Part shown: positions 54,358-64,000 of the stretch, piece after piece
Layout of the letters: each line of letters starts with the position of its first letter
How positions within the stretch are numbered: position 1 is the first letter of the stretch
NCBI GenBank assembly: GCA_963741955.1
Contig: CAVUKB010000006.1
Span: forward strand, 416,001-480,000
Length of the DNA: 64,000 bases
DNA from: an uncultured Acidobacteriota bacterium
GTDB taxonomy: Bacteria > Acidobacteriota > Thermoanaerobaculia > Gp7-AA8
Direction: 5' to 3'
Translations under genes and position numbers: made by a program
The notes under the pieces: generated by a model
What the model saw: only the letters and a program-made list of their open reading frames with translations
Database searches by the model: none
What the model was told of the DNA's origin: nothing

Positions 54358-55045
54358 GGCATCGCGGATCGTGGATCGAAAAGCAGCGCGGATCGTGGAT
54401 TGAGGATCGTGGATCTGAAAGACATCGATTATCGTGTATCGCGCATCGAGGATCCGAGATGCATCGACGCTCGAGGTTCCGCGGCCAGCCCCGTAGGGGC
54501 GTTTGACAATAGCCCAGGACGCAGTCCTGGGGTTCCGGTCCTGCAGCCCACACTCCCTCAGCCCCGGAGGGGCGATTGAACCATCCCATTCCTCGAGGCT
54601 CGAAGGACATCGTGGATCGTGGATTGAGGATCGCGGATCTGAAAGACATCGATTATCGCGTATCGCGCATCGAGGATCCGAGGTGCATCGACGCCCGTGG
54701 TTCGGGCACAGCCCCGTAGGGGCGTTTGACAATAGCCCGGGACGCAGTCCTGGGTTTCCGGTCCTGCAGCCCACACTCCCTCAGCCCCGGAGGGGCGATT
54801 GAACCATCCCATTCCTCGAGGCTCGAAGGACATCGTGGATCGTGGATTGAGGATCGCGGATCTGAAAGACGTCGAGGGGCTCGCATCGTGGATCAAACAG
54901 CCTCGCGCATCGAGGATCCGAGGTGCATCGACGCCCGTGGTTCGGGCACAGCCCCGTAGGGGCGTTTGACAATAGCCCGGGACGCAGTCCTGGGTTTCCG
55001 GTCCGGAAGCGCCCCGAGAGCCCCGTAGGGGCCATTGAACGATTG
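54358..55045. repeat. Three tandem REPIN-like units (spacing 223 and 240 bp)
   Basis: GCCCCGTAGGGGCGTTTGACAATAGCCC(A/G)GGACGCAGTCCTGGG at 54488, 54711, 54951 with near-identical GATC-rich linkers. Confidence 0.9.
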
Positions 55046-55206: not shown

Positions 55207-55284
55207 TGGGGTGGGTAGTGGGATTCGAACCCACGACCTTCGGAGCCACAATCCGACGTTCTAACCAACTGAACTATACCCACC
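55207..55284 (-). tRNA. tRNA-His (GTG)
   Basis: G-1 GTGGGTA / TACCCAC-C-CCA; anticodon arm TCGGA-TTGTGGC-TCCGA; GTTCGAATC. Confidence 0.97.
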
Positions 55285-55313: not shown

Positions 55314-55390
<77 letters not shown>

Positions 55391-55416
55391 ACGGAACCGC
55401 GCCGCAGAGGCCCGGC

Positions 55417-55446
55417 AATCTAAATCCACGCCCCTGCGACTGTCAA
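55417..55446 (-). promoter_or_regulatory. Putative sigma-70 promoter of the tRNA-Pro/His pair
   Basis: TTGACA (55446-55441), 18 nt, TAGATT, then GC-rich discriminator GCCGGGCC. Confidence 0.55.
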
Positions 55447-55512
55447 GCAACATGGCGGGTGCGAATCGAATTTCGCAGATTCCAGGCGACTCGAATTCGG
55501 CTCGTACAGCAA

Positions 55513-55610
55513 CCCGGGGACTGCGACCCGGGCTATTGTCAAACGCCCCTACGGGGCTGTCCCCGAACCTCGGCCCTCGATGTCTTTCAGATCCTCGATC
55601 CGCGATGCCT
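55513..55610. repeat. Partial inverted REP-like unit
   Basis: CCCGGGGACTGCGACCCGGGCTATTGTCAAACGCCCCTACGGGGC, the reverse complement of the 54488-type unit. Confidence 0.8.
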
Positions 55611-55650
55611 TTCGAGCTTGTCACCCTCCGCTCTTCGACGGCTGCGCGTC

Positions 55651-56601
55651 TCATCGGGCGGTCGGACGTGCGCCGGTCAGCTCATGCTCGAACCATTTCC
55701 ACGTCCGCGCGAGACCGTCTTCCAGTTCGACCGGCTCGGGAAGTCCGGTCAGGTTGCGAAGCTTCGTCCCATCGAGGACGCTCCTCTGCTGCTCGCCGGC
55801 TTTCGCCGGGCCGTGAACGGACGGGACCTCGATCCCGGAGACCTTCCGCAGGGTCGCGTAGAGGTCGACCACCGAAGTCTCGACCCCGGTTCCGACGTTG
55901 AAGGAGCCTTCGAGCTTCATCGAAGAGGCAGCCATGTTCGCGCGAACGACATCGGCGACGAAGACGTAGTCGCGGGTCTGAGCTCCGTCGCCGTTGATGG
56001 TCACCGGCTCGCCCCGCAGCATTTTCCCGGCGAAGATCGCGACCACTCCCGCTTCGCCGTCCGCGCGCTGCCTCGGGCCGTAGACGTTCGCGTAGCGGAG
56101 CGCCACCGCGGAGAGGCCGAAGACCTGGCGGTAGTAGTTGAGGTACTGCTCGAATGCGAACTTCGAGCAGCCATACGGCGACATCGGCATGGCGGGATGT
56201 TCCTCGGTCTGAGGGACGTGGATCGGATCGCCGTAGATCGCTCCGCCGCTCGACGCGAAGACGATCCGCTCGACGCCGGACTCCTTCGCCGCTTGCAGCA
56301 GACGCAACGCTCCGACGACGTTCACCTCTGCGTCGAAAGCCGGATCGGCCACCGAGTGCCGGACGTCCATCTGCGCTGCGTGATGACTGACCAGATCGAC
56401 ACCGCCTTCGAACGCACGCGCCACGGCACCGGCGTCGTTGAGGTCACCAACGACGAGCTCCGCACGCGGGTCGACGTTCTCACGCCGTCCCGTCGAAAGG
56501 TTGTCGAGAATGCGCACCTTCCAACCGTCGGCGAGATATGCGTCGGCCAGATGCGATCCGATGAAGCCGGCCCCGCCGGTAATGAGAACGGTTTTCGTCA
56601 T
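55651..56601 (-). CDS. NAD-dependent NDP-sugar epimerase/dehydratase (GalE/WbpP-like extended SDR)
   Basis: [27 protein letters not shown] (YxxxK), [18 protein letters not shown]. Confidence 0.93.
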
Positions 56602-57018
56602 TCAGTTCCCCTTCTCCCCTTTCTCCAGAATCAAGGTCTGTCGCTGCGACAGTTCCTGGCGGTCATTGAGCACCCTTCCTTCCATCTCGATCCAAGCGTG
56701 GCCGATCACGGCCTTTCCGGGATCTCGGTCGAGCGACACACGTAGAACGGCGGGATATCCCCGGCGCAGAAGCATGTCGCGAAGTGCGAGAGACCTGGTA
56801 AGGCAAGCCGGACGGAGAACGTGCCACCGGGCCGCCGCAGCAAGATCCCGTGCGATCGTCTCCGCGGACTTCGCCGGGACGCGCCGTGCCGGCTTTATCG
56901 GCAGAAGCATCGTCCGGATGACGTGTCGGGGGCGGAATGCGACCATCGCACTCGCCCAGGTCAGCCGAAGGTACGCCTCGGCGAACAGCAACAGGTCTGA
57001 CACGGTGAACGGCGGCAT
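56602..57018 (-). CDS. Lasso-peptide B2-type (transglutaminase-like) cysteine leader peptidase
   Basis: ACLTRSLAL...RRG...GHAWIE...LND Cys-His-Asp pattern; start moved to ATG 57018. Confidence 0.85.
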   Translation of the reverse strand: MPPFTVSDLLLFAEAYLRLTWASAMVAFRPRHVIRTMLLPIKPARRVPAKSAETIARDLAAAARWHVLRPACLTRSLALRDMLLRRGYPAVLRVSLDRDPGKAVIGHAWIEMEGRVLNDRQELSQRQTLILEKGEKGN

Positions 57019-57037
57019 AACCCCGGTTCCCCGGCAC

Positions 57038-57304
57038 TCACTCTTTCGGGCTGACGAAACCGCGATCGCGGAGGAGCTCGAGAAAATCCGCGACGTCCCG
57101 ATCCGCTTCCTCGCGAGGAATTCCGTATTCGCGCGCAAGCTCGGTGGCAATGGCGGCGTCGTCATTCTCGCGGAGCCGCTTCCAGATGAAGCTCCCGGTC
57201 GGATTCAGCCCGAGGGTCGTGCCGGTCGCAACGTCGACGAGCACGGCTTCCGGTCCGACCATCTGCCAGGCAACGGACGATGTCGTTTCCCATTTCATGT
57301 TCAC
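57038..57304 (-). CDS. PqqD family / RiPP recognition element (RRE)
   Basis: EAVLVD....LGLNPTGSFIW...LAREY......DVADFLELLRDRGFV; ~86-88 aa; AGGAG RBS. Confidence 0.92.
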   Translation of the reverse strand: MNMKWETTSSVAWQMVGPEAVLVDVATGTTLGLNPTGSFIWKRLRENDDAAIATELAREYGIPREEADRDVADFLELLRDRGFVSPKE

Positions 57305-57311
57305 GTTGCTC

Positions 57312-58121
57312 CTACGATTTTCTCGCCACCACGTGCGCGTATCCGTGAATCACAGTTGCGACGATCTCGTACCCCGCCTCCCTCAACTCGTCTTCAACTT
57401 CGCCGGGCGTGTACATACGGCGATAGAAGAATGTCGCCATAGACTCTCCGGGCTCGAGCGGCCGCCGTCCCAGGATTCTACGGAGGACGCTCGCCACCCG
57501 TCGTCTCACGCCGACGGAGCGCGATTCGCCGCCCCGCTTCCAGAACGATACGAGCAGAGGCGCGCCCGGTCGCAGACCGCGATGGATGGCGCGGAGGAAT
57601 TCTATCCTACGCTCCCGTCCGATCATGTGGGTGTACGCCGCCCATCCGACCACGGCGCCGTCGAATGGAGCATTTCTCTCCGGAACCGCGTCCGGAGCAG
57701 CGAAGAGTGTCTCTACCGAACCTCGAGGAGCGAGCTTCTCGACGTTTGCGCAGAGCTCGCGATACAACTCCGGAACACACTCGGTCGCCGTGACCTGATG
57801 GCCCCGCCGGACCAGATCGAGGACCTCCCGCCCTCCACCTGCACTGGTCACGAGGAGATGTCCGTCCGCCGGAAAGTGCTTCGTGATCGCTCTCTCTTCC
57901 CACGCGTAAAGCCCGGCCAGAGTGTGGTGGTCGTCCCGGTACTTCCCGTCCGTCCGGTAGTCCTCGGCCGTCATACGGTCGAGCGTTTCATCCGATGCAA
58001 AACAGAAGATCAGCAACTCTACGGCAGCGATCCAGTGGCGTACGAAGAAATTCGGAAGGCGGTAGGCCGCACGGAGCAGCTTCACGGTACCGCTCGCACG
58101 CGTTTTCGTCGGAGGCGTCAT
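57312..58121 (-). CDS. Class I SAM-dependent methyltransferase
   Basis: LLVTSAGGGRE (motif I variant), VTATEC, FDGAVVGW, LRPGAPLLVS; ATGA overlap with the upstream gene. Confidence 0.8.
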   Translation of the reverse strand: MTPPTKTRASGTVKLLRAAYRLPNFFVRHWIAAVELLIFCFASDETLDRMTAEDYRTDGKYRDDHHTLAGLYAWEERAITKHFPADGHLLVTSAGGGREVLDLVRRGHQVTATECVPELYRELCANVEKLAPRGSVETLFAAPDAVPERNAPFDGAVVGWAAYTHMIGRERRIEFLRAIHRGLRPGAPLLVSFWKRGGESRSVGVRRRVASVLRRILGRRPLEPGESMATFFYRRMYTPGEVEDELREAGYEIVATVIHGYAHVVARKS

Positions 58122-58939
58122 CGACCTGCGCCGGCGTCCTCGAGAGCGCGGACGAACGGCTCCCACACCGGCGCTTCCGGCGACCATCCCATCCGAAACA
58201 CCGGAATGCTCTCGACGAGATTCTGGATGTTCAAGAGCGTCGCCTCCCACAGCCCGCGAACCGGATACACACGCAGCGACCGGACCAGAGCCTTCACCGC
58301 GTCTCCTCGCTCGAGCCGTGACAGCGAGAACCGGGCACTCTTGTCCAGCTCGGCCACAGCCCCCATCGCCACCATCCCGCGAGGGGCATCCATCGCAGCC
58401 AGCGCGCCCCAGAAGCCGTTGGCACCGAGCACGAACGGCATCCCTCGCACCACCACTTCCTCATCGGAAATGACGTCGAAAGGGCTCGTGGAAGCAAGCG
58501 TCGTTTTTCCCGCCCCCGAGGGACCGAAGAAGGCCCAACCACGCGCCCCGTCGGACACCGCAGCTCCGTGCAGCGCGAATCCGCCGTCCAGCGGGAGCAC
58601 CGCGGTCAGAGCGGTTCTCAACGCCGCCATGAATGCGTACGTACAGCGGTGGCGGCGAAATAGACTTCCCCTCCGCTCGAATGGAAGGACCTCGGCCTGA
58701 AAGTCGTCGTGGACGACTCGCACACGATCCTCGAACCAGACGATGCGAGCCGGGGTTCCGCGCTTCGGTACGTCGGGGAATTGAAAGATCGCCTCCGGCA
58801 CGATGTCCATCCGGAATTCCGGGAGCGGCGAGACGGCGGTGGGGGTTCCGATGGTTCGGAGGTAAGTTTCTTCTTCCTGAGTAAACGGGAAGCCGCCGAG
58901 ATTTTCGATCCGAAATGGAAGTTCCGCGAGATGGATCAA
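58118..58939 (-). CDS. HPr kinase-related P-loop protein
   Basis: FALHGAAV...FFGPSGAGKTTLA...VISDE; ATGA overlap with the radical SAM gene. Confidence 0.8.
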   Translation of the reverse strand: MIHLAELPFRIENLGGFPFTQEEETYLRTIGTPTAVSPLPEFRMDIVPEAIFQFPDVPKRGTPARIVWFEDRVRVVHDDFQAEVLPFERRGSLFRRHRCTYAFMAALRTALTAVLPLDGGFALHGAAVSDGARGWAFFGPSGAGKTTLASTSPFDVISDEEVVVRGMPFVLGANGFWGALAAMDAPRGMVAMGAVAELDKSARFSLSRLERGDAVKALVRSLRVYPVRGLWEATLLNIQNLVESIPVFRMGWSPEAPVWEPFVRALEDAGAGR

Positions 58940-59982
58940 GCGCTCGCGCGCTCCTTCCGGCGCCGCTCTTCGGCGACCTCCCAGGCGATCTCCGCGCGCG
59001 TGAGGAACGCCGGGTCGGGGTTCAGAGGATCCCCGGTCGCCTCGGCGGCGAGCGCGGGACAGTACGAGTAGATCGAATACGGAGGTTCCATCGTGCGCAT
59101 CCGTCCATTCGCGTCGTCTGCAACCGTCGCAGCATCGCGCCGGACCTGCGAGGTCCTCCAGAGCTCACGAAGCCGGATCTCACGTACGTTCCCCAGAGAC
59201 GTATGCCGCCACTGGATACAGGGGAAGACGTTTCCTTCGGGGTCAACGGCCATGGTGATGCGCCCCAGCCCGCAGTTGGCGGCCTTCTCCGGACGCTCGA
59301 TGAATCCGAGGGTATTCGATTCGAGTCCGATCTCGGCAACCCGCCGCATCGCGTCACGCGAGGCGGTGTAAACCAGTGGACCACGATCTCCATCGTCGCG
59401 GGGAGTGATCGTCGCATCCATCCGGTACTTCACGCCGAGGGAGGCAGCGAGGTCGAGCATCTGATCGATCTGATGCTCGTTCAGATTCGTCACGGGCGTC
59501 TTCAGAAGTACTCGCACTCCTTCATCACGAAGGCGCGTCAACCCGGAGAGCATCGCGTCGAAGGACCCCGGGAGTCCGGTCGTCCGGTCGTGGACGTCCC
59601 GCGTCGCCCCGTGCATGCTGATCTCCACAGCTGCCGGCTGCAACGCAGCGATCTCTTTCGCCGTCTCCGCGTCGACCAGACTTCCGTTCGTGAAGACCCG
59701 CAATGCGAACGCGCGTTCCCGAACCGCCTTCGCTACGGAAAGGAAGTCCGGGCTCGCCAGCGCTTCTCCTCCCGTGAGTGTGACGGTGAGGGTGCCGAGC
59801 TCGCGTAGATCGTCGAGGACGGTCATCCATTCGTCGCGCTCGAGCCGGCGGACATCGGAATGCCGCGGGTTGTAGCAGAAGACGCACCTCCAGTTGCAGC
59901 GGTACGTCAGCTCGAGAGACGCGGTGAGGGGCTGAGCGAGTGCGAATGCCCGGTCGGAGAACGAGCTGGAAGGAGTACCCAT
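58936..59982 (-). CDS. Radical SAM peptide maturase with truncated SPASM/Twitch domain
   Basis: LELTYRCNWRCVFCY, LTGGE, FTNG, ISMHG...HDRTTG..GSF; C-terminal NCGLG...EGNVFPC...LGNV...YCPA. Confidence 0.92.
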   Translation of the reverse strand: MGTPSSSFSDRAFALAQPLTASLELTYRCNWRCVFCYNPRHSDVRRLERDEWMTVLDDLRELGTLTVTLTGGEALASPDFLSVAKAVRERAFALRVFTNGSLVDAETAKEIAALQPAAVEISMHGATRDVHDRTTGLPGSFDAMLSGLTRLRDEGVRVLLKTPVTNLNEHQIDQMLDLAASLGVKYRMDATITPRDDGDRGPLVYTASRDAMRRVAEIGLESNTLGFIERPEKAANCGLGRITMAVDPEGNVFPCIQWRHTSLGNVREIRLRELWRTSQVRRDAATVADDANGRMRTMEPPYSIYSYCPALAAEATGDPLNPDPAFLTRAEIAWEVAEERRRKERASA

Positions 59983-59989
59983 CAGGCGC

Positions 59990-60154
59990 TCAGCTGAAGG
60001 TTCCGCCGATCTGACAACCCGTATCGCCCACCGTCTTCGAGCAGCTCACTCCGACGGCGGCAGCATCGAGCTGCTGTTCCCAGGCGATGGCTGGCTTCTC
60101 GTAATCTGGCCGGTGCTCTCCCTGGCTCTCGGAGGGGGTTTCTGTTTCTTTCAA
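59990..60154 (-). CDS. Putative RiPP precursor peptide, 54 aa (MKETETPSESQGEHRPDYEKPAIAWEQQLDAAAVGVSCSKTVGDTGCQIGGTFS)
   Basis: AAGGAG 5 nt before TTG 60154; YxxP leader motif; small-residue core with two Cys; stop 7 nt before the rSAM ATG. Confidence 0.8.
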   Translation of the reverse strand: MKETETPSESQGEHRPDYEKPAIAWEQQLDAAAVGVSCSKTVGDTGCQIGGTFS

Positions 60155-60222
60155 CAGGTCTCCTTGTGGTGTACCTACGAGTTTACTTGAAAAACCAGCC
60201 ATGTTCCTGCGAATCAGGCCGG

Positions 60223-60765
60223 TTACGGTCGGATCTGGAATGAAGCCGGAGCCGCGCACTTCAGTGGGTCGCCGTCCACGTACGCCTCTGCCTTCCAGGT
60301 CCCGTACAACGAATGACTCATGATCAATGTTCCGGCGACCGGAAGCCGCACGCTGGTTCCGAGCTCCTTTCCTTTCGACCAGCTCACCGGTTCGAGCACG
60401 CGCACCGGCATCGGAAGCGGATAGTCTTCGAGCTTCCTCTGTTTTCCTTTCCCATTCGCGTCGTACGTGAAGGGAATCGCGGTCGACTGGTAGAGATAGC
60501 CGTGGGGAGTGAAGATCCTCACTTCCACCTGGTGGTCGCCGGAGAAGCGATTCGCCGAGCCAGGGTTGAACAAGACCCAGAGATCGATGTCCAGGATCCG
60601 GGTCGCGGAGAAGCCGGCTGCGGGCGCTCCTCCGTCCGATTGCATCGATGTGGCCACCACGGAGACACACCCGCCGTTCCCGCCGGCAGCAGCGAATGCG
60701 GGTGAAACCGCACCTGCGAAGACGACGGTCATCGCCAGAAGAGTCGATCGTATCGTTTTCATCAT
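60223..60765 (-). CDS. Secreted hypothetical protein (beta-sandwich-like)
   Basis: Signal peptide ending SPAFA; GGGGAG RBS; GTWKAEAYVDG Ig-like end; two Cys in the mature part. Confidence 0.75.
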   Translation of the reverse strand: MMKTIRSTLLAMTVVFAGAVSPAFAAAGGNGGCVSVVATSMQSDGGAPAAGFSATRILDIDLWVLFNPGSANRFSGDHQVEVRIFTPHGYLYQSTAIPFTYDANGKGKQRKLEDYPLPMPVRVLEPVSWSKGKELGTSVRLPVAGTLIMSHSLYGTWKAEAYVDGDPLKCAAPASFQIRP

Positions 60766-60778
60766 TCACTCTCCCCTG

Positions 60779-63700
60779 TCACGGCGTGACGCAGTAGACG
60801 GAGCCACCTTCGGTCCCCACGTAGATCCAGTTGTTGAGGAAGTCGATGATCGGCGCTCCGACCGAGCCGGCATCGATGGAGCGGACGGTCTGCGACGGAG
60901 AAGCCGTGTTCAGGCCGTTCAGCCTGACCAGTTTTCCGTCTCCGGTGCCGACCCATCCGTCGGTTCCGTTGGTGACGATGTTCGACGGCGAGACGAGAGA
61001 TCCTGCACCGCTGGCCGGAGTTGCCCAGTTCAGTGTCGCGGAGGGGCCGTTGTCGGTCAGACTCCAGACCCGGTTCGTCGTCGTGAAGTAGAGTCGAGTC
61101 GTCGCCCAGTCGGGATAGACGTACGTCTTGATCGGCCCGTCGCCGGTTGGATAGCTCCACAACAGTGTGCCGGTCGCTTCGCTGAGCGCGTAGACGTCGC
61201 CGTTGTTGTTTCCGACGTACAACACGCCGTTCCGGATGGTCGGTGCCGTCTCGGCATCGCCGATCGGAAGAGCCCAGGCCAGCGATGCACCGCCTGCGGT
61301 GTAATTCAGGCACCAGACTGTATTCGAGCTTCCCCCGGATTCCGCGCGACTGGTGAAAAAGAGCCTCTGGGTTGCCGCATCGACGCTCGGGATCGCGGTG
61401 ACTACGCCGATCGCGCTCGCTCCTCCGCCGTTGTCGTAGCTCCAGACGGTCGCTCCCGTTGCGGCGTTGAGCGCGTAGACCACATTCCCCGTGGAGGAGT
61501 TTCTCGTCGCCGCAAACACGAGATCCAAGCCGCCGATCGTGCTCTTGTACTGACGGAATGCGATCGCCACCGGGGCCTGCACCATGTCGCCGAGCTGCGC
61601 GCTCATCCAGAGCCGGACTCCGGTGTCTGCGTCGAAACAGTAGACGTGTCCGTCCTGCGAGGAGACGAACGTGACGCGGGTGCTGCCCGAGATCGGGAAA
61701 AGTGTGGTCGGAACGATGATCGTCCGCCCCTGGGCCGGCGCGTTCATCGCCGGCGGCTTCCACTCCTTCGGTGCGAGCTCGGGCCAGTCACCACCCGGAA
61801 CGCTGACGTTCATCGAGTGGAGGCGGCGATCGTTCGAGACGCTGTAAACCGCGGTGTAGCTCGTCGGCGGAGCGAGCGCAGTCGCGCCGGAGTTGTAGAT
61901 CCAGCGCACGTCCTGGCCCGCCGACGTATCGCGAGGTGATCCGGAAGCGAAAGTTCCGGTCGAGTAAACTCCGGGACCCCCGGTGGCGGTCGCGGTCTGG
62001 CACGAGGAGAGTGATGACTCGCAGCTCCCGGTCGCATCGACGGAGGAGACCTGGTAGGAGTAGGTCGAACCGCCGGTCACGGCAGCGTCATCATAGCTCG
62101 TTGTGGCGACGCCGCTCGTCAGGAGCGTGGCCCCGGTGCACGTCGCGCCGTCGGCGCGGTAGACGTTGTAGGTCGCGCCGGCGGGCGTGCCCGCGGTCCA
62201 CGCGAGGTGGATGGTGTTGCTCGTGGGCGTCGTAAGCGTCAGGCCCGTCGGCGCGCCGGGGGTGGTGCACGAGGTGGTGGTCACCGAGACGCACGAAGAG
62301 GCGACGGACTCGCAGTTGCCGGTGGCGGCATCGACGGCAGTGACGCGGTACCAGTAAGTCGCTCCGGTCGTCGCAGTCGTGTCCGTGTACGACGTTCCGC
62401 TCACGGGTGACGCGTTCAACTTCGTGAAGATACCCGCCGGGCACGTCTCGGTCGAACGGTAGACGTTGTAGGTCACTCCCGCACCGGAGCTGGCCCACGT
62501 CACTGTATTCGAGGTCGAGGAGAGTGGTGATGCGACCACGCTGGCGGGAATCGCCGGCGCGCTGCACGTCGCACACGTGCTGAATCTGAAGCTGCCGATT
62601 CGCGTGTTCCAGTTGAACGATCCATTCGCAGCCAGGTACTCGGTCGTGAACCAGAAAGTGCATTCGTCGGTGGGATCGACGGTGAGCGACGAATAGTCGC
62701 CCCACCGATGCAGCGTCCCGGTCTGAGAGCCTGATCCAGGAAACATCGTGGCCTCGGTCTGCAGAGTGTTCGCCGGATCCGTGGAGAGCCTCCCGGTGTA
62801 TTCGATCGACGGATTGATCGAGGCGCTCGAGATGCTGTATCCGATTGCGATGTCCCCGAACTTGTCCATCGCGATGCTTCCCATCCATCGATCCTCGGTG
62901 GTGCTCGGGTTGTACGTGCTTTGCTGGTAGAGGCTCGGTGTCCCGTTCGGGTCACGAATCTCGTACCACCGGAGCGCCGACTGCTGCGCGCCGCCACCGT
63001 CGGGATCGACGGAATGTGTCACCACCAGCGATTCATGCGTCCCGAAATTGCGATAGGAGAGATGCCACATCAACCGGTCGGCCAGAGTATCGAGGGTATT
63101 CGACGTGCCCGCCTGGGCGATGCAACTTCCTGCCGCGCCATTACACGCGATTGTGATCGGACTGACTCCTATGATCGTCGGACCGCTGATACTCGAATTT
63201 GCGGGCGTCGCAAAATCCGAATGGAACTTCCAGAGCTGTAGACAGCCGCTCGCGTCGGCCGCGCCGCAGCCCGCCGAGGTATTGTCGAATGAGACGAAAA
63301 AGTTCGGCTCCCCGGGCGGAGGTGGGGTCGTTCCGTCCCAGTCTGCAGGGAGAAGACCACCATAGGTGGTTCCGAGATTGAAGTAGATCGCCGATGCGGA
63401 AGGGTTCCCGGCGAGCATTGCGGCACGATCGTAAGCGTAGACGCCGGCGCCTTCCCAGTTCTGGAGCCTCCTGCCGGAGAATTGGTTCACCGACATGTAG
63501 TACGCGTCCCTCCAGACCCCGGACTTGCCGTAGTCGTTGAAGACATCAGTGGTCCCGGCGACGCTCGGGAACGCGTAGCGATACCAGGTTCCGGTCGGAT
63601 CCGGCGATGTGGAGACCGCGACGCACTGATAGAACGGAGCGGCCGGATACCCGCTTCCACCGACCGTGAACGCGAATTGACTCATGAACCAGCGGTCGGC

Positions 63701-64000
63701 CGACGCATCGTACATGACCAGCGGGTCACCCTGGTTCGTGCTGGCACAAAGCCCGCCACCGCCCGAGAAACCGCTCCAGATCGTGTTGCCGGGTGCAGGA
63801 TTGCCGGACGTCGGATAGACGATGCCCCCGTTCTTGTCGAAGATCAGGAAGTCGGTGTTGACCCACTGGATGTAGTGATTGGGGCCGACCTCGCCCTCGG
63901 TATCGGGTGGAGCGACGGATGGCGAGTAGCCTACGATGCCCGTGCCCACGCCTTCGAAGGTCCCGTTCAAAACCGGGGCGAACGTCGCTCCGCCGGCCGT
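60779..64000 (-). CDS. Large secreted-type protein (>1070 aa, 5' end outside window): RWGDYS-type domain + 2 FN3 + PQQ/BamB-like beta-propeller
   Basis: Frame open to 64000; PPDTEGEVGPNHY, GDPLVMYD, HRWGDYSS; FN3 (TYNVYR..YWYRVTAVD); repeats VYCFDADTG..LW, VYALNAATG..VWSY, VYALSEATG..LWSY. Confidence 0.85.
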   Translation of the reverse strand, partial: TAGGATFAPVLNGTFEGVGTGIVGYSPSVAPPDTEGEVGPNHYIQWVNTDFLIFDKNGGIVYPTSGNPAPGNTIWSGFSGGGGLCASTNQGDPLVMYDASADRWFMSQFAFTVGGSGYPAAPFYQCVAVSTSPDPTGTWYRYAFPSVAGTTDVFNDYGKSGVWRDAYYMSVNQFSGRRLQNWEGAGVYAYDRAAMLAGNPSASAIYFNLGTTYGGLLPADWDGTTPPPPGEPNFFVSFDNTSAGCGAADASGCLQLWKFHSDFATPANSSISGPTIIGVSPITIACNGAAGSCIAQAGTSNTLDTLADRLMWHLSYRNFGTHESLVVTHSVDPDGGGAQQSALRWYEIRDPNGTPSLYQQSTYNPSTTEDRWMGSIAMDKFGDIAIGYSISSASINPSIEYTGRLSTDPANTLQTEATMFPGSGSQTGTLHRWGDYSSLTVDPTDECTFWFTTEYLAANGSFNWNTRIGSFRFSTCATCSAPAIPASVVASPLSSTSNTVTWASSGAGVTYNVYRSTETCPAGIFTKLNASPVSGTSYTDTTATTGATYWYRVTAVDAATGNCESVASSCVSVTTTSCTTPGAPTGLTLTTPTSNTIHLAWTAGTPAGATYNVYRADGATCTGATLLTSGVATTSYDDAAVTGGSTYSYQVSSVDATGSCESSLSSCQTATATGGPGVYSTGTFASGSPRDTSAGQDVRWIYNSGATALAPPTSYTAVYSVSNDRRLHSMNVSVPGGDWPELAPKEWKPPAMNAPAQGRTIIVPTTLFPISGSTRVTFVSSQDGHVYCFDADTGVRLWMSAQLGDMVQAPVAIAFRQYKSTIGGLDLVFAATRNSSTGNVVYALNAATGATVWSYDNGGGASAIGVVTAIPSVDAATQRLFFTSRAESGGSSNTVWCLNYTAGGASLAWALPIGDAETAPTIRNGVLYVGNNNGDVYALSEATGTLLWSYPTGDGPIKTYVYPDWATTRLYFTTTNRVWSLTDNGPSATLNWATPASGAGSLVSPSNIVTNGTDGWVGTGDGKLVRLNGLNTASPSQTVRSIDAGSVGAPIIDFLNNWIYVGTEGGSVYCVTP

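Follow-up and report, generated by a model that had tools for sequence, protein, structure and literature searches.

A small gene hidden in a longer reading frame suggests a family of radical SAM- and kinase-associated peptide precursors in Acidobacteriota

Results

A small gene at the end of a spurious reading frame

The 64,000-nucleotide stretch analysed here (the window) belongs to an uncultured Acidobacteriota bacterium (GenBank assembly GCA_963741955.1, contig CAVUKB010000006.1, positions 416,001–480,000 of the forward strand), and the subject of this text is a small minus-strand gene at 59990–60154, a candidate precursor gene of a ribosomally synthesised and post-translationally modified peptide (RiPP), together with the genes that follow it. 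The gene starts with a TTG (60154–60152) placed 5 nucleotides (nt) behind the Shine-Dalgarno sequence AAGGAG (60160–60165, minus strand), stops with a TGA (59992–59990) and encodes 54 amino acids (aa). Its product has an acidic N-terminal part with RPDYEKPAI, continues with LDAAAVG and ends in VSCSKTVGDTGCQIGGTFS; the motif YEKPAIAW lies at 60080–60103 on the minus strand, and the codons of Cys38, Cys47 and the C-terminal Ser are found at 60043–60041, 60016–60014 and 59995–59993, respectively. A first-pass annotation, made from the letters of the window, had described just such an AAGGAG-N5-TTG gene buried in a 259-aa open reading frame (ORF), and reading the minus strand at these positions bears out both the gene and the translation, with RPDYEKPAI, LDAAAVG, the two Cys residues and the C-terminal Ser.

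The 259-aa ORF (59990–60769, minus strand) appears in the ORF listing because the precursor frame, which forms its 3′ end, stays open up to 60769. Upstream of 60222 it overlaps, out of frame, the gene of a 180-aa signal-peptide protein (60223–60765), and since that protein is conserved in related loci we regard the 259-aa ORF as spurious. The small gene itself occupies a 240-bp gap ahead of the gene of a radical S-adenosylmethionine (SAM) enzyme, and searches of its product against Pfam and NCBIfam returned no family match even at E ≤ 10. By analogy with the Tyr(−17) rule of lasso peptides (PMC10368454), residues 1 to about 34 would constitute the leader and G35–S54 (59993–60052), with Cys38, Lys40, Cys47 and Ser54, the putative core; we infer the boundary from this rule.

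Conservation of the precursor across Acidobacteriota

Related loci were collected by searching the radical SAM protein against one genome per species, which returned 26 loci. Twenty-three of these come from metagenome-assembled genomes (MAGs) labelled Acidobacteriota (Thermoanaerobaculia, Vicinamibacteria, Holophagales and unclassified members), with radical SAM identities of 46–64%; the other three (L025–L027, from an archaeon, a Lachnospiraceae and a Chloroflexota MAG) share 27–32% identity over part of the radical SAM core and were left out of the counts. A homologous small ORF on the same strand is present in all 23 Acidobacteriota loci, 22 of them recognised by tblastn with the peptide and one (L018, in which YAPP stands in place of YEKP) by eye in three frames, as the first-pass proposal of a separate small RiPP precursor gene with a YxxP leader leads one to expect. 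The ORF lies directly upstream of a PqqD gene and the radical SAM gene in 21 of the 23 loci, directly upstream of the radical SAM gene in L014 and 4.5 kb upstream in L007, and one copy (L024) is frameshifted. In every intact copy the start codon precedes the Tyr of the leader motif by 14–22 codons (17 for the TTG of the window), usually behind a purine-rich GGAGG-like stretch.

In an alignment of 23 rows (the window and 22 homologues, the frameshifted copy being left out), Tyr18, Pro21, Trp25, Cys38 and Cys47 do not vary, all 23 rows end in Ser and Lys40 is found in 21/23. The Cys residues, Lys40 and the terminal Ser are the only conserved residues of the core, no Thr or Asp being conserved there, and the family is accordingly described by a leader motif [Y]xxPx[IV]xW and a core signature C-x-K...C...Ser-COOH. 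The first-pass annotation had suggested that the Cys residues donate thioethers or form a disulfide, with Thr, Asp and Ser as possible acceptors. It had named the YxxP motif and the two Cys residues as features whose loss in syntenic loci would count against it, and these are retained, as is the terminal Ser, which it had also expected to be conserved.

Searched against 5.8 billion proteins, a profile built from the 23-row alignment retrieved 173 clusters at E ≤ 0.01, all “hypothetical”, 50–93 aa long and without a Pfam domain. Among the best 120 of these 173 clusters, on which all motif counts over clusters rest and for which the counts partly follow by construction because the searching profile contains the same motifs, the terminal Ser and YxxPxxxW are present in 120/120, exactly two Cys residues spaced C-x9-C in 117/120 (three have an extra Cys in the leader) and, as counted, a Lys two residues past the first Cys in 114/120. 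The CxK motif is also present in all three relatives with the extra leader Cys. The copy in the window departs from the family in that its spacing is C-x8-C, as opposed to the C-x9-C of 117 of the best 120 relatives.

Of 401 genomes sampled from the phylum, 71 gave a match to the same profile at E ≤ 0.001 (67 of 371 high-quality genomes), the unpublished genome G152 included. Because most of the 71 matches are weak, five matching genomes were opened across the range of E values (3e-25 to 4e-05): all five peptides have YEKPx[IV] and CxK, contain another Cys and end in Ser, and genes for an HprK-like protein, a PqqD protein and a radical SAM enzyme are adjacent in four, the fifth match lying at the end of a 7.6-kb contig. 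At the level of sequence comparison, the 54-aa ORF is confirmed as a real gene.

Three of the five opened genomes carry two tandem precursor copies. These distant members (L044, 7620–8190; L046, 6272–6707; L045, 183–459) encode pairs with slightly different cores, for example VACAKLDDNDCGGTPLTS and IRCAKLDDTQCPGGPVTS, in the gene order kinase, PqqD, radical SAM enzyme, precursors.

A radical SAM enzyme with a reduced auxiliary domain

The genes downstream of the small gene are all on the minus strand and are separated by short gaps or overlaps, in the order peptide, radical SAM enzyme, HprK/PEPCK-fold kinase, methyltransferase, PqqD and B2 (gap of 7 nt between peptide and radical SAM gene, overlap of 4 nt between radical SAM and kinase gene). 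The radical SAM enzyme (348 aa, 58936–59982, with its ATG 7 nt past the peptide stop) matches Pfam Radical_SAM at 3.3e-24, carries the CX3CX2C motif as C29, C33 and C36 and has no fused RiPP recognition element (RRE). Its match to Pfam SPASM (5.1e-08) is partial, covering profile positions 1–50 of 67, and the C-terminal domain contains only three further Cys residues (C237, C255 and C308), which are conserved in 21/21 sequences. Judged by these residues, the domain is of the SPASM or twitch-like type but truncated, and can house one auxiliary cluster; seven auxiliary Cys residues are present in full SPASM enzymes, MftC among them. L019 was left out of alignment A3 and L022 out of alignment A4 (stops inside the tblastn range).

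Against the maturase models of NCBIfam the enzyme scores below every cut-off, the best match being MftC with 116.8 bits (E 1.1e-33, cut-off 265), followed by PqqE (106.7 against 381), ScmE (101 against 400), StsB (93 against 625), ScmF (80 against 400), AlbA (75 against 850) and SkfB (64 against 300). The best sequence match in the PDB is PqqE (6c8v, 6.7e-19). An AlphaFold2 (AF2) model with a predicted local distance difference test score (pLDDT) of 90.5 retrieved SkfB (2.7e-13), PqqE (8.9e-13) and CteB (1.8e-12), and also SuiB, in Foldseek searches.

An HprK/PEPCK-fold kinase-like protein

The next gene encodes a P-loop kinase-like protein of the HprK/PEPCK fold (273 aa, 58118–58939, minus strand), whose start overlaps the radical SAM stop by 4 nt and whose sequence matches PEPCK_ATP and HprK_rel_B weakly. 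H124, G139, S141, G142, G144, K145, D159 and E160 are invariant among 20 sequences. A search for related loci with the kinase alignment, in which the P-loop was the only usable pattern, took in at least five distant relatives and has no bearing on the range of the kinase. The AF2 model (pLDDT 92.3) retrieved PEPCK at 3.9e-07 and HprK/P at 2e-04 to 6e-04 (1ko7 2e-04, 1knx 3.6e-04) in Foldseek, with low template modelling scores (0.26–0.45). By way of the published motif, H124-x14-G139-x2-G142-x-G144-K145-T146 can be likened to H148-G163-G166-G168-K169-S170 of BsfK, residues described as important for catalysis (PMC10368454); the spacing is identical.

PadeK and PsmK are kinases that modify their precursors ahead of leader removal, by phosphorylation of the C-terminal Ser (PMC6993621; PMC10368454). 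The pairing of an invariant terminal Ser with an HprK-like kinase encoded two genes downstream, which goes beyond the first-pass annotation, is the most specific lead that the locus offers.

A discrete recognition element proposed to bind the YxxP leader

The RRE is encoded separately (88 aa, 57038–57304, minus strand) and matches Pfam PqqD at 6.4e-20, above the cut-off. Tested against the named NCBIfam subfamilies (lasso B1, ScmD, PqqD_rel_X and PqqD), it remains below every cut-off, with 35 against 100 for ScmD and 28 against 35 for PqqD_rel_X. The first-pass annotation had taken YxxP for the RRE-binding motif of lasso leaders, in agreement with the literature, in which YxxPxL is given as that motif and YxxPx[L/V/I] as bound by discrete lasso RREs (PMC10368454; PMC13381572). 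In the Bradymonas system the RRE speeds phosphorylation and is required for cleavage by B2 (PMC10368454).

The first-pass annotation had also proposed that leader binding by the RRE be examined by complex prediction. With our own alignments, the pair of PqqD protein and peptide scored 0.51 as compared with 0.02 for the best of three controls, above a mark that 58 of 80 solved complexes attain, as do 2 of 110 mismatched pairs; passing scores of at most 0.60 were obtained by only 7 of the 80 solved complexes and by both of the passing mismatches. The runs agree in at least 82% of contacts, with a partner pLDDT of at least 52. Because RRE–leader complexes have already been solved, the pass may reflect memory of the predictor, and we take the score, which stands above mark and controls, as weak support for binding of the precursor leader by PqqD.

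Accessory genes of this genome

Two further genes belong to the run. A class I SAM methyltransferase is encoded at 57312–58250 (minus strand; Pfam Methyltransf_25 3.9e-05, below the cut-off), and its probable start is the ATG at 58121, which overlaps the kinase stop as ATGA and gives a protein of 269 aa. A lasso-type B2 leader peptidase, a transglutaminase-like Cys protease, is encoded at 56602–57165 (minus strand), with a probable start at the ATG at 57018, 19 nt past the PqqD stop; taken at full ORF length, methyltransferase and B2 would run 133 and 128 nt into the preceding genes. The B2 protein scores 63.6 bits with NCBIfam lasso_biosyn_B2 (NF033537; cut-off 33) and matches Pfam Transglut_core3 at 4.3e-18, its Cys121 and His156 (GHAW) are invariant in the four of four B2 copies of the family, and it is the only B2 of the genome.

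Across the 23 related loci, PqqD is present in 21, in each case between peptide and radical SAM gene, and an HprK-like gene in 20, whereas no homologue of the methyltransferase was found in any; B2 in the family is limited to the window, L002, L021, genome G365 and, weakly and after iteration, L009. Given this distribution, peptide, PqqD, radical SAM enzyme and P-loop protein make up the conserved core, and B2 and methyltransferase are accessories of this genome.

The last gene of the same-strand run encodes a GalE-like NAD-dependent epimerase (55651–56601, minus strand; Pfam Epimerase 7.1e-62). In none of the 23 loci does an epimerase homologue adjoin the cassette, and its membership in the pathway is doubtful. 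A scan of 55400–61000 for promoters and terminators returned one promoter-like and five terminator-like sites, without excess over shuffled sequences. No RNA dataset is listed for the stretch; one sequencing run contains it and may be its source sample.

Secreted proteins encoded upstream

Two genes for secreted proteins precede the small gene on the same strand. The nearer one (60223–60765, minus strand), 68 nt from the peptide start, encodes the 180-aa protein with a signal-peptide-like N-terminus, for which neither Pfam nor NCBIfam holds a family and the ESM Atlas only unnamed clusters and generic beta-sandwich look-alikes; homologues are present in 11 of the 23 related loci. The other runs from 60779 to beyond 63970 (minus strand), off the end of the window at 64000, and encodes a large secreted protein ending in a PQQ_2/BamB-like beta-propeller (Pfam PQQ_2 4.3e-11). 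A propeller homologue lies directly upstream on the same strand in 16 of the 23 loci, and the N-terminal domains of these proteins vary from locus to locus (DUF7948, SBBP and DUF11 in L002; none recognised in the window).

Discussion

A proposed pathway and its weak points

Our preferred reading, to which we give somewhat better than even chances, makes the 54-aa ORF the precursor (A) gene in an uncharacterised radical SAM and kinase RiPP family common in Acidobacteriota. The PqqD protein would bind the leader via Tyr18, Pro21, Ile23 and Trp25 and present the peptide to the enzymes. The radical SAM enzyme would then set one or two intramolecular cross-links in the core of about 20 residues, most likely thioethers of Cys38 and Cys47 of the sacti- or ranthipeptide type, and the kinase would phosphorylate a Ser, most likely the invariant C-terminal Ser54, by analogy with PadeK and PsmK acting on lasso precursors that end in Ser. 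In this genome, B2 aided by PqqD would cut off the leader near Val34/Gly35, and the extra methyltransferase may contribute a tailoring step.

Several points weigh against this proposal. All of the pathway chemistry is inferred. No thioether acceptor residue is conserved in the core, the conserved Lys40 finds no explanation in the proposed chemistry, and the Tyr(−17) rule places no Thr at position −2. The kinase-like protein exceeds no HprK family cut-off (HprK_rel_B 14 against 200) and lacks the second Asp of the DD pair, having D159-E160 (SDE) instead, at 14–15 residues past the Lys as compared with 17–18 for the D-D of BsfK. Moreover, neither BsfK nor LppK acts on the C-terminus: both phosphorylate Ser3 of the core (PMC10368454 for BsfK, PMC13381572 for LppK). 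The putative core of the window also has a Ser at position 3 (Ser37), a position that is not conserved. In L014 the terminal Ser is kept without a PqqD or kinase gene in the 12-kb locus, for which reason the residue may instead be important to the radical SAM step. Cutting off the leader with B2 is not a family trait, given its restriction to the few members named above, most of the 23 loci have neither peptidase nor exporter, and ORF list and Pfam scan show no exporter gene between 55651 and 64000. Finally, the motif counts over the clusters carry less weight than their size suggests, being in part built into the profile.

Alternative explanations

The existence of the gene is hardly at issue: that it is a chance ORF, or the mis-annotated tail of the 259-aa frame, has practically no chance of being true, since nothing but the long open frame suggests it, against a separate small gene in 173 clusters and 23/23 loci with conserved start positions and a 259-aa frame whose upstream part overlaps a conserved gene in another frame. 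The kind of product needs more discussion, as the locus resembles a lasso peptide cluster in its YEKPAI leader, its PqqD gene and its B2 and departs from one in having neither a cyclase in the cluster nor an Asp/Glu acceptor. A Pfam scan found no Asn_synthase (lasso cyclase) match in operon or window; the search with this family covered the operon, the window and the genome, the 23 related loci lying outside it. Because there is no cyclase, we conclude that the product is not a lasso peptide. It is extremely improbable that the peptide is nevertheless a true lasso precursor served by a cyclase encoded elsewhere. The YxxPx[IV] leader, the PqqD RRE and the B2 protease are all present, the putative core begins with Gly35 and the genome holds 11 Asn_synthase matches, but all of these lie outside the operon, with distances to the peptide of about 32 and 43 kb for the nearest on the contig, most family loci have no B2 and the conserved partner is a radical SAM enzyme. 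Nor is an Asp or Glu conserved at core positions 7–9 for any plausible cleavage site, in the 23-row alignment or the best 120 clusters; the window core has an Asp at position 10, and several subfamilies have no Asp or Glu ahead of the second Cys. The first-pass annotation had likewise called the core not lasso-like, rightly as regards the conclusion (no cyclase in the operon, B2 mostly absent, no acceptor at core positions 7–9), as it was right about a small RiPP precursor gene with a YxxP leader; the reason it gave, a missing Thr at −2, is weak and not decisive, because lasso leaders with Ile or Val at −2 exist (PMC10368454).

More serious is the question of what the enzymes do to this peptide. 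With the same precursor and enzymes, the C-terminal Ser may be the site of the radical SAM enzyme and not of the kinase, in an MftC-like reaction or a cross-link of Cys47 or Lys40 to the last residue, which we consider unlikely but worth keeping in view. MftC acts on the C-terminus of its peptide and scores highest among the NCBIfam models against the radical SAM enzyme (116.8 bits, E 1.1e-33), Ser3 is the target of the characterised kinases BsfK and LppK, the terminal Ser persists in L014 with no kinase nearby, and Lys40 is conserved without explanation; the MftC match is, however, far below the cut-off of 265, the enzyme has three auxiliary Cys residues where full SPASM enzymes such as MftC have seven, no internal Ser or Thr of the core is conserved, and kinase-bearing lasso precursors that end in Ser are phosphorylated at that very Ser. 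A kinase, an invariant Ser and an invariant Cys for one core also recall the class III and IV lanthipeptides, in which phosphorylation is followed by elimination. Here phospho-Ser would be eliminated to dehydroalanine and captured by Cys to form a lanthionine-like ring, which is very unlikely, as the cassette encodes no lyase or cyclase domain, the characterised HprK-like systems retain the phosphate and the radical SAM enzyme would be left without a role. A different fate altogether would be that the modified peptide is not a free secreted product but a peptide-derived cofactor, ligand or small partner of the propeller and/or the 180-aa protein, with a logic akin to that of pyrroloquinoline quinone (PQQ), of mycofactocin or, in quinohemoprotein amine dehydrogenase, of the cross-linked gamma subunit. 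The upstream genes would fit such a partnership: the propeller gene lies directly upstream on the same strand in 16 of the 23 loci and the 180-aa gene is found in 11, the propeller proteins differ in their N-termini, the gaps in the window measure 13 and 68 nt with no minus-strand terminator-like site between, no exporter belongs to the cassette and a peptidase is lacking in most loci, and by sequence the radical SAM enzyme stands closest to MftC and PqqE, both of them cofactor maturases. We nonetheless think it distinctly improbable, because the loci of the TLAVACAK subfamily (L003, L004, L005 and L017) have no propeller neighbour, neither the propeller nor the 180-aa protein found a match in the retrieved stretches of the distant members G194 and G117, an export signal is missing from the peptide whereas both neighbours are secreted, and synteny within one phylum can be inherited and need not be functional. 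If true, a cross-linked and phosphorylated peptide would act together with the secreted propeller and 180-aa proteins as a cofactor, as a covalently or tightly bound partner or as a sensed signal, and the locus would represent a new kind of extracytoplasmic protein–peptide system, in which maturation of the peptide falls to a radical SAM enzyme and a peptide kinase.

Relation to known systems

Returning to the radical SAM and kinase RiPP family that we favour, the closest parallels in its parts are the phosphorylated lasso peptides, that is, paeninodin (PadeA/K), pseudomycoidin (PsmA/K) and the Bradymonas system (BsfA/K/B1/B2). They share with the window the YxxPx[L/I/V] leader, a discrete PqqD-type RRE, B2 (in this genome), an HprK-like kinase whose His/P-loop motif is the same and a precursor ending in Ser, which in paeninodin and pseudomycoidin is the phosphorylated residue (PMC6993621; PMC10368454). 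HPr kinase genes had been noted in some lasso clusters in a genome-mining paper of 2014 (PMC4289311). In contrast to these systems, cyclase, macrolactam acceptor, nucleoside triphosphate (NTP) transferase and ATP-binding cassette exporter are all missing from the window operon, and the conserved partner is a radical SAM enzyme; B2 is absent from most loci, and the kinase shows DE in place of DD and stays below the HprK cut-offs.

A second parallel is provided by the linear polyphosphorylated peptides (LPP; LppA/K/B/S/D/N) of Bacillota (Popov et al, 2026; PMC13381572), which, as described there, are likewise cyclase-less RiPPs with a YxxP leader, a discrete RRE and an HprK-like kinase. In LPP clusters, a SpI/SipW-like leader peptidase, an NTP transferase and also an exporter resembling MsbA are encoded beside RRE and kinase (PMC13381572), whereas the window operon has none of the three and adds a radical SAM enzyme. 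The LPP cores, phosphorylated at Ser3, are long and variable and do not have the CxK...C...Ser signature, and their leaders (YxxPxVLxHQxIxFETxxS) have only YxxPx[IV] in common with the YEKPx[IV]xWExxLE of the family presented here (PMC13381572). Neither “radical SAM” nor “rSAM” occurs in the main text of that paper, and full-text literature searches found no paper describing a radical SAM enzyme and an HprK-like peptide kinase together.

On the side of the radical SAM enzyme, the maturases of sacti- and ranthipeptides (SkfB, CteB, AlbA) have the same combination of a radical SAM core with a C-terminal auxiliary Fe-S domain and a Cys-bearing core peptide, and SkfB and CteB are within the top three Foldseek matches of our model. 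They differ from the window enzyme in that the RRE is here separate and not an N-terminal fusion, in the three auxiliary Cys residues and in that no named family is reached. We know of no kinase in the sacti- and ranthipeptide classes. PqqE/PqqD of the PQQ pathway and MftC/MftB of the mycofactocin pathway likewise pair a radical SAM enzyme and a separate protein of the PqqD family for work on a small peptide, whereas the peptide of the window has neither Glu-x3-Tyr nor a C-terminal Val-Tyr, those pathways have neither kinase nor B2, and the radical SAM enzyme stays below the cut-offs of both MftC and PqqE (265 and 381). A PQQ-like reading of the leader, with Glu-x3-Tyr, was considered and dropped, as no Glu is conserved upstream of the Tyr. 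Similar parts (radical SAM/SPASM, PqqD-like and HprK-related proteins) also make up the SynChlorMet (ScmC/D/E/F) and HPr-rel-A cassettes that Haft defined in silico (NCBIfam TIGR04248–04251, TIGR04353 and TIGR04355), but the proteins of the window remain below the ScmD, ScmE, ScmF, PqqD_rel_X and HprK_rel_B cut-offs. To our knowledge, none of these cassettes has been characterised experimentally.

The precursor family is still without a name, is covered by no model in Pfam or NCBIfam and lacks a characterised member, and its profile matches about one in six of the sampled genomes of a phylum that is abundant in soil and little explored for natural products. If our reading holds, it would be a case of lasso-type parts (YxxP leader, PqqD, B2 and kinase) being reused without a cyclase, extending the LPP picture of 2026. 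With the precursor located, the pathway becomes directly testable from four small genes.

Further observations

Other combinations of kinase and recognition element turned up in three more distant loci. L037 (5041–11563) and the identically arranged L038, both from Chloroflexota, contain an HprK-like gene, a small ORF with a KPYIKPAIVQELDLEARA leader and genes for a 1242-aa C25 (gingipain-like) peptidase, an S24-like peptidase and a PqqD protein; the peptide has YxxP, a Pro/Asp-rich core without Cys and a terminal Asp and points to another cyclase-less kinase/RRE peptide system. In L039 (301–4094), from an Acidobacteria MAG, an HprK-like ORF is followed by a 510-aa radical SAM ORF with an N-terminal PqqD-like stretch, and the opposite strand carries a small ORF with PWQRPRILFREPLE (WxxP for YxxP), two Cys residues and a terminal Ser. 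All three are in line with, and so support, the view that the precursor family is probably one branch of a large uncharacterised superfamily.

In L002 (7788–10510) and L006 (7825–9408), genes for a thioredoxin/AhpC-like redoxin and a DsbD-like protein lie directly past the kinase gene, convergent to the cassette; the presence of such thiol:disulfide genes in two loci may be chance or may be tied to the Cys-bearing peptide. In the window, the operon is followed by genes for tRNA-His (55207–55283) and tRNA-Pro (55314–55390), beyond which a 223-bp unit is repeated in 2.7 tandem copies (92% matches) at 54390–55004.

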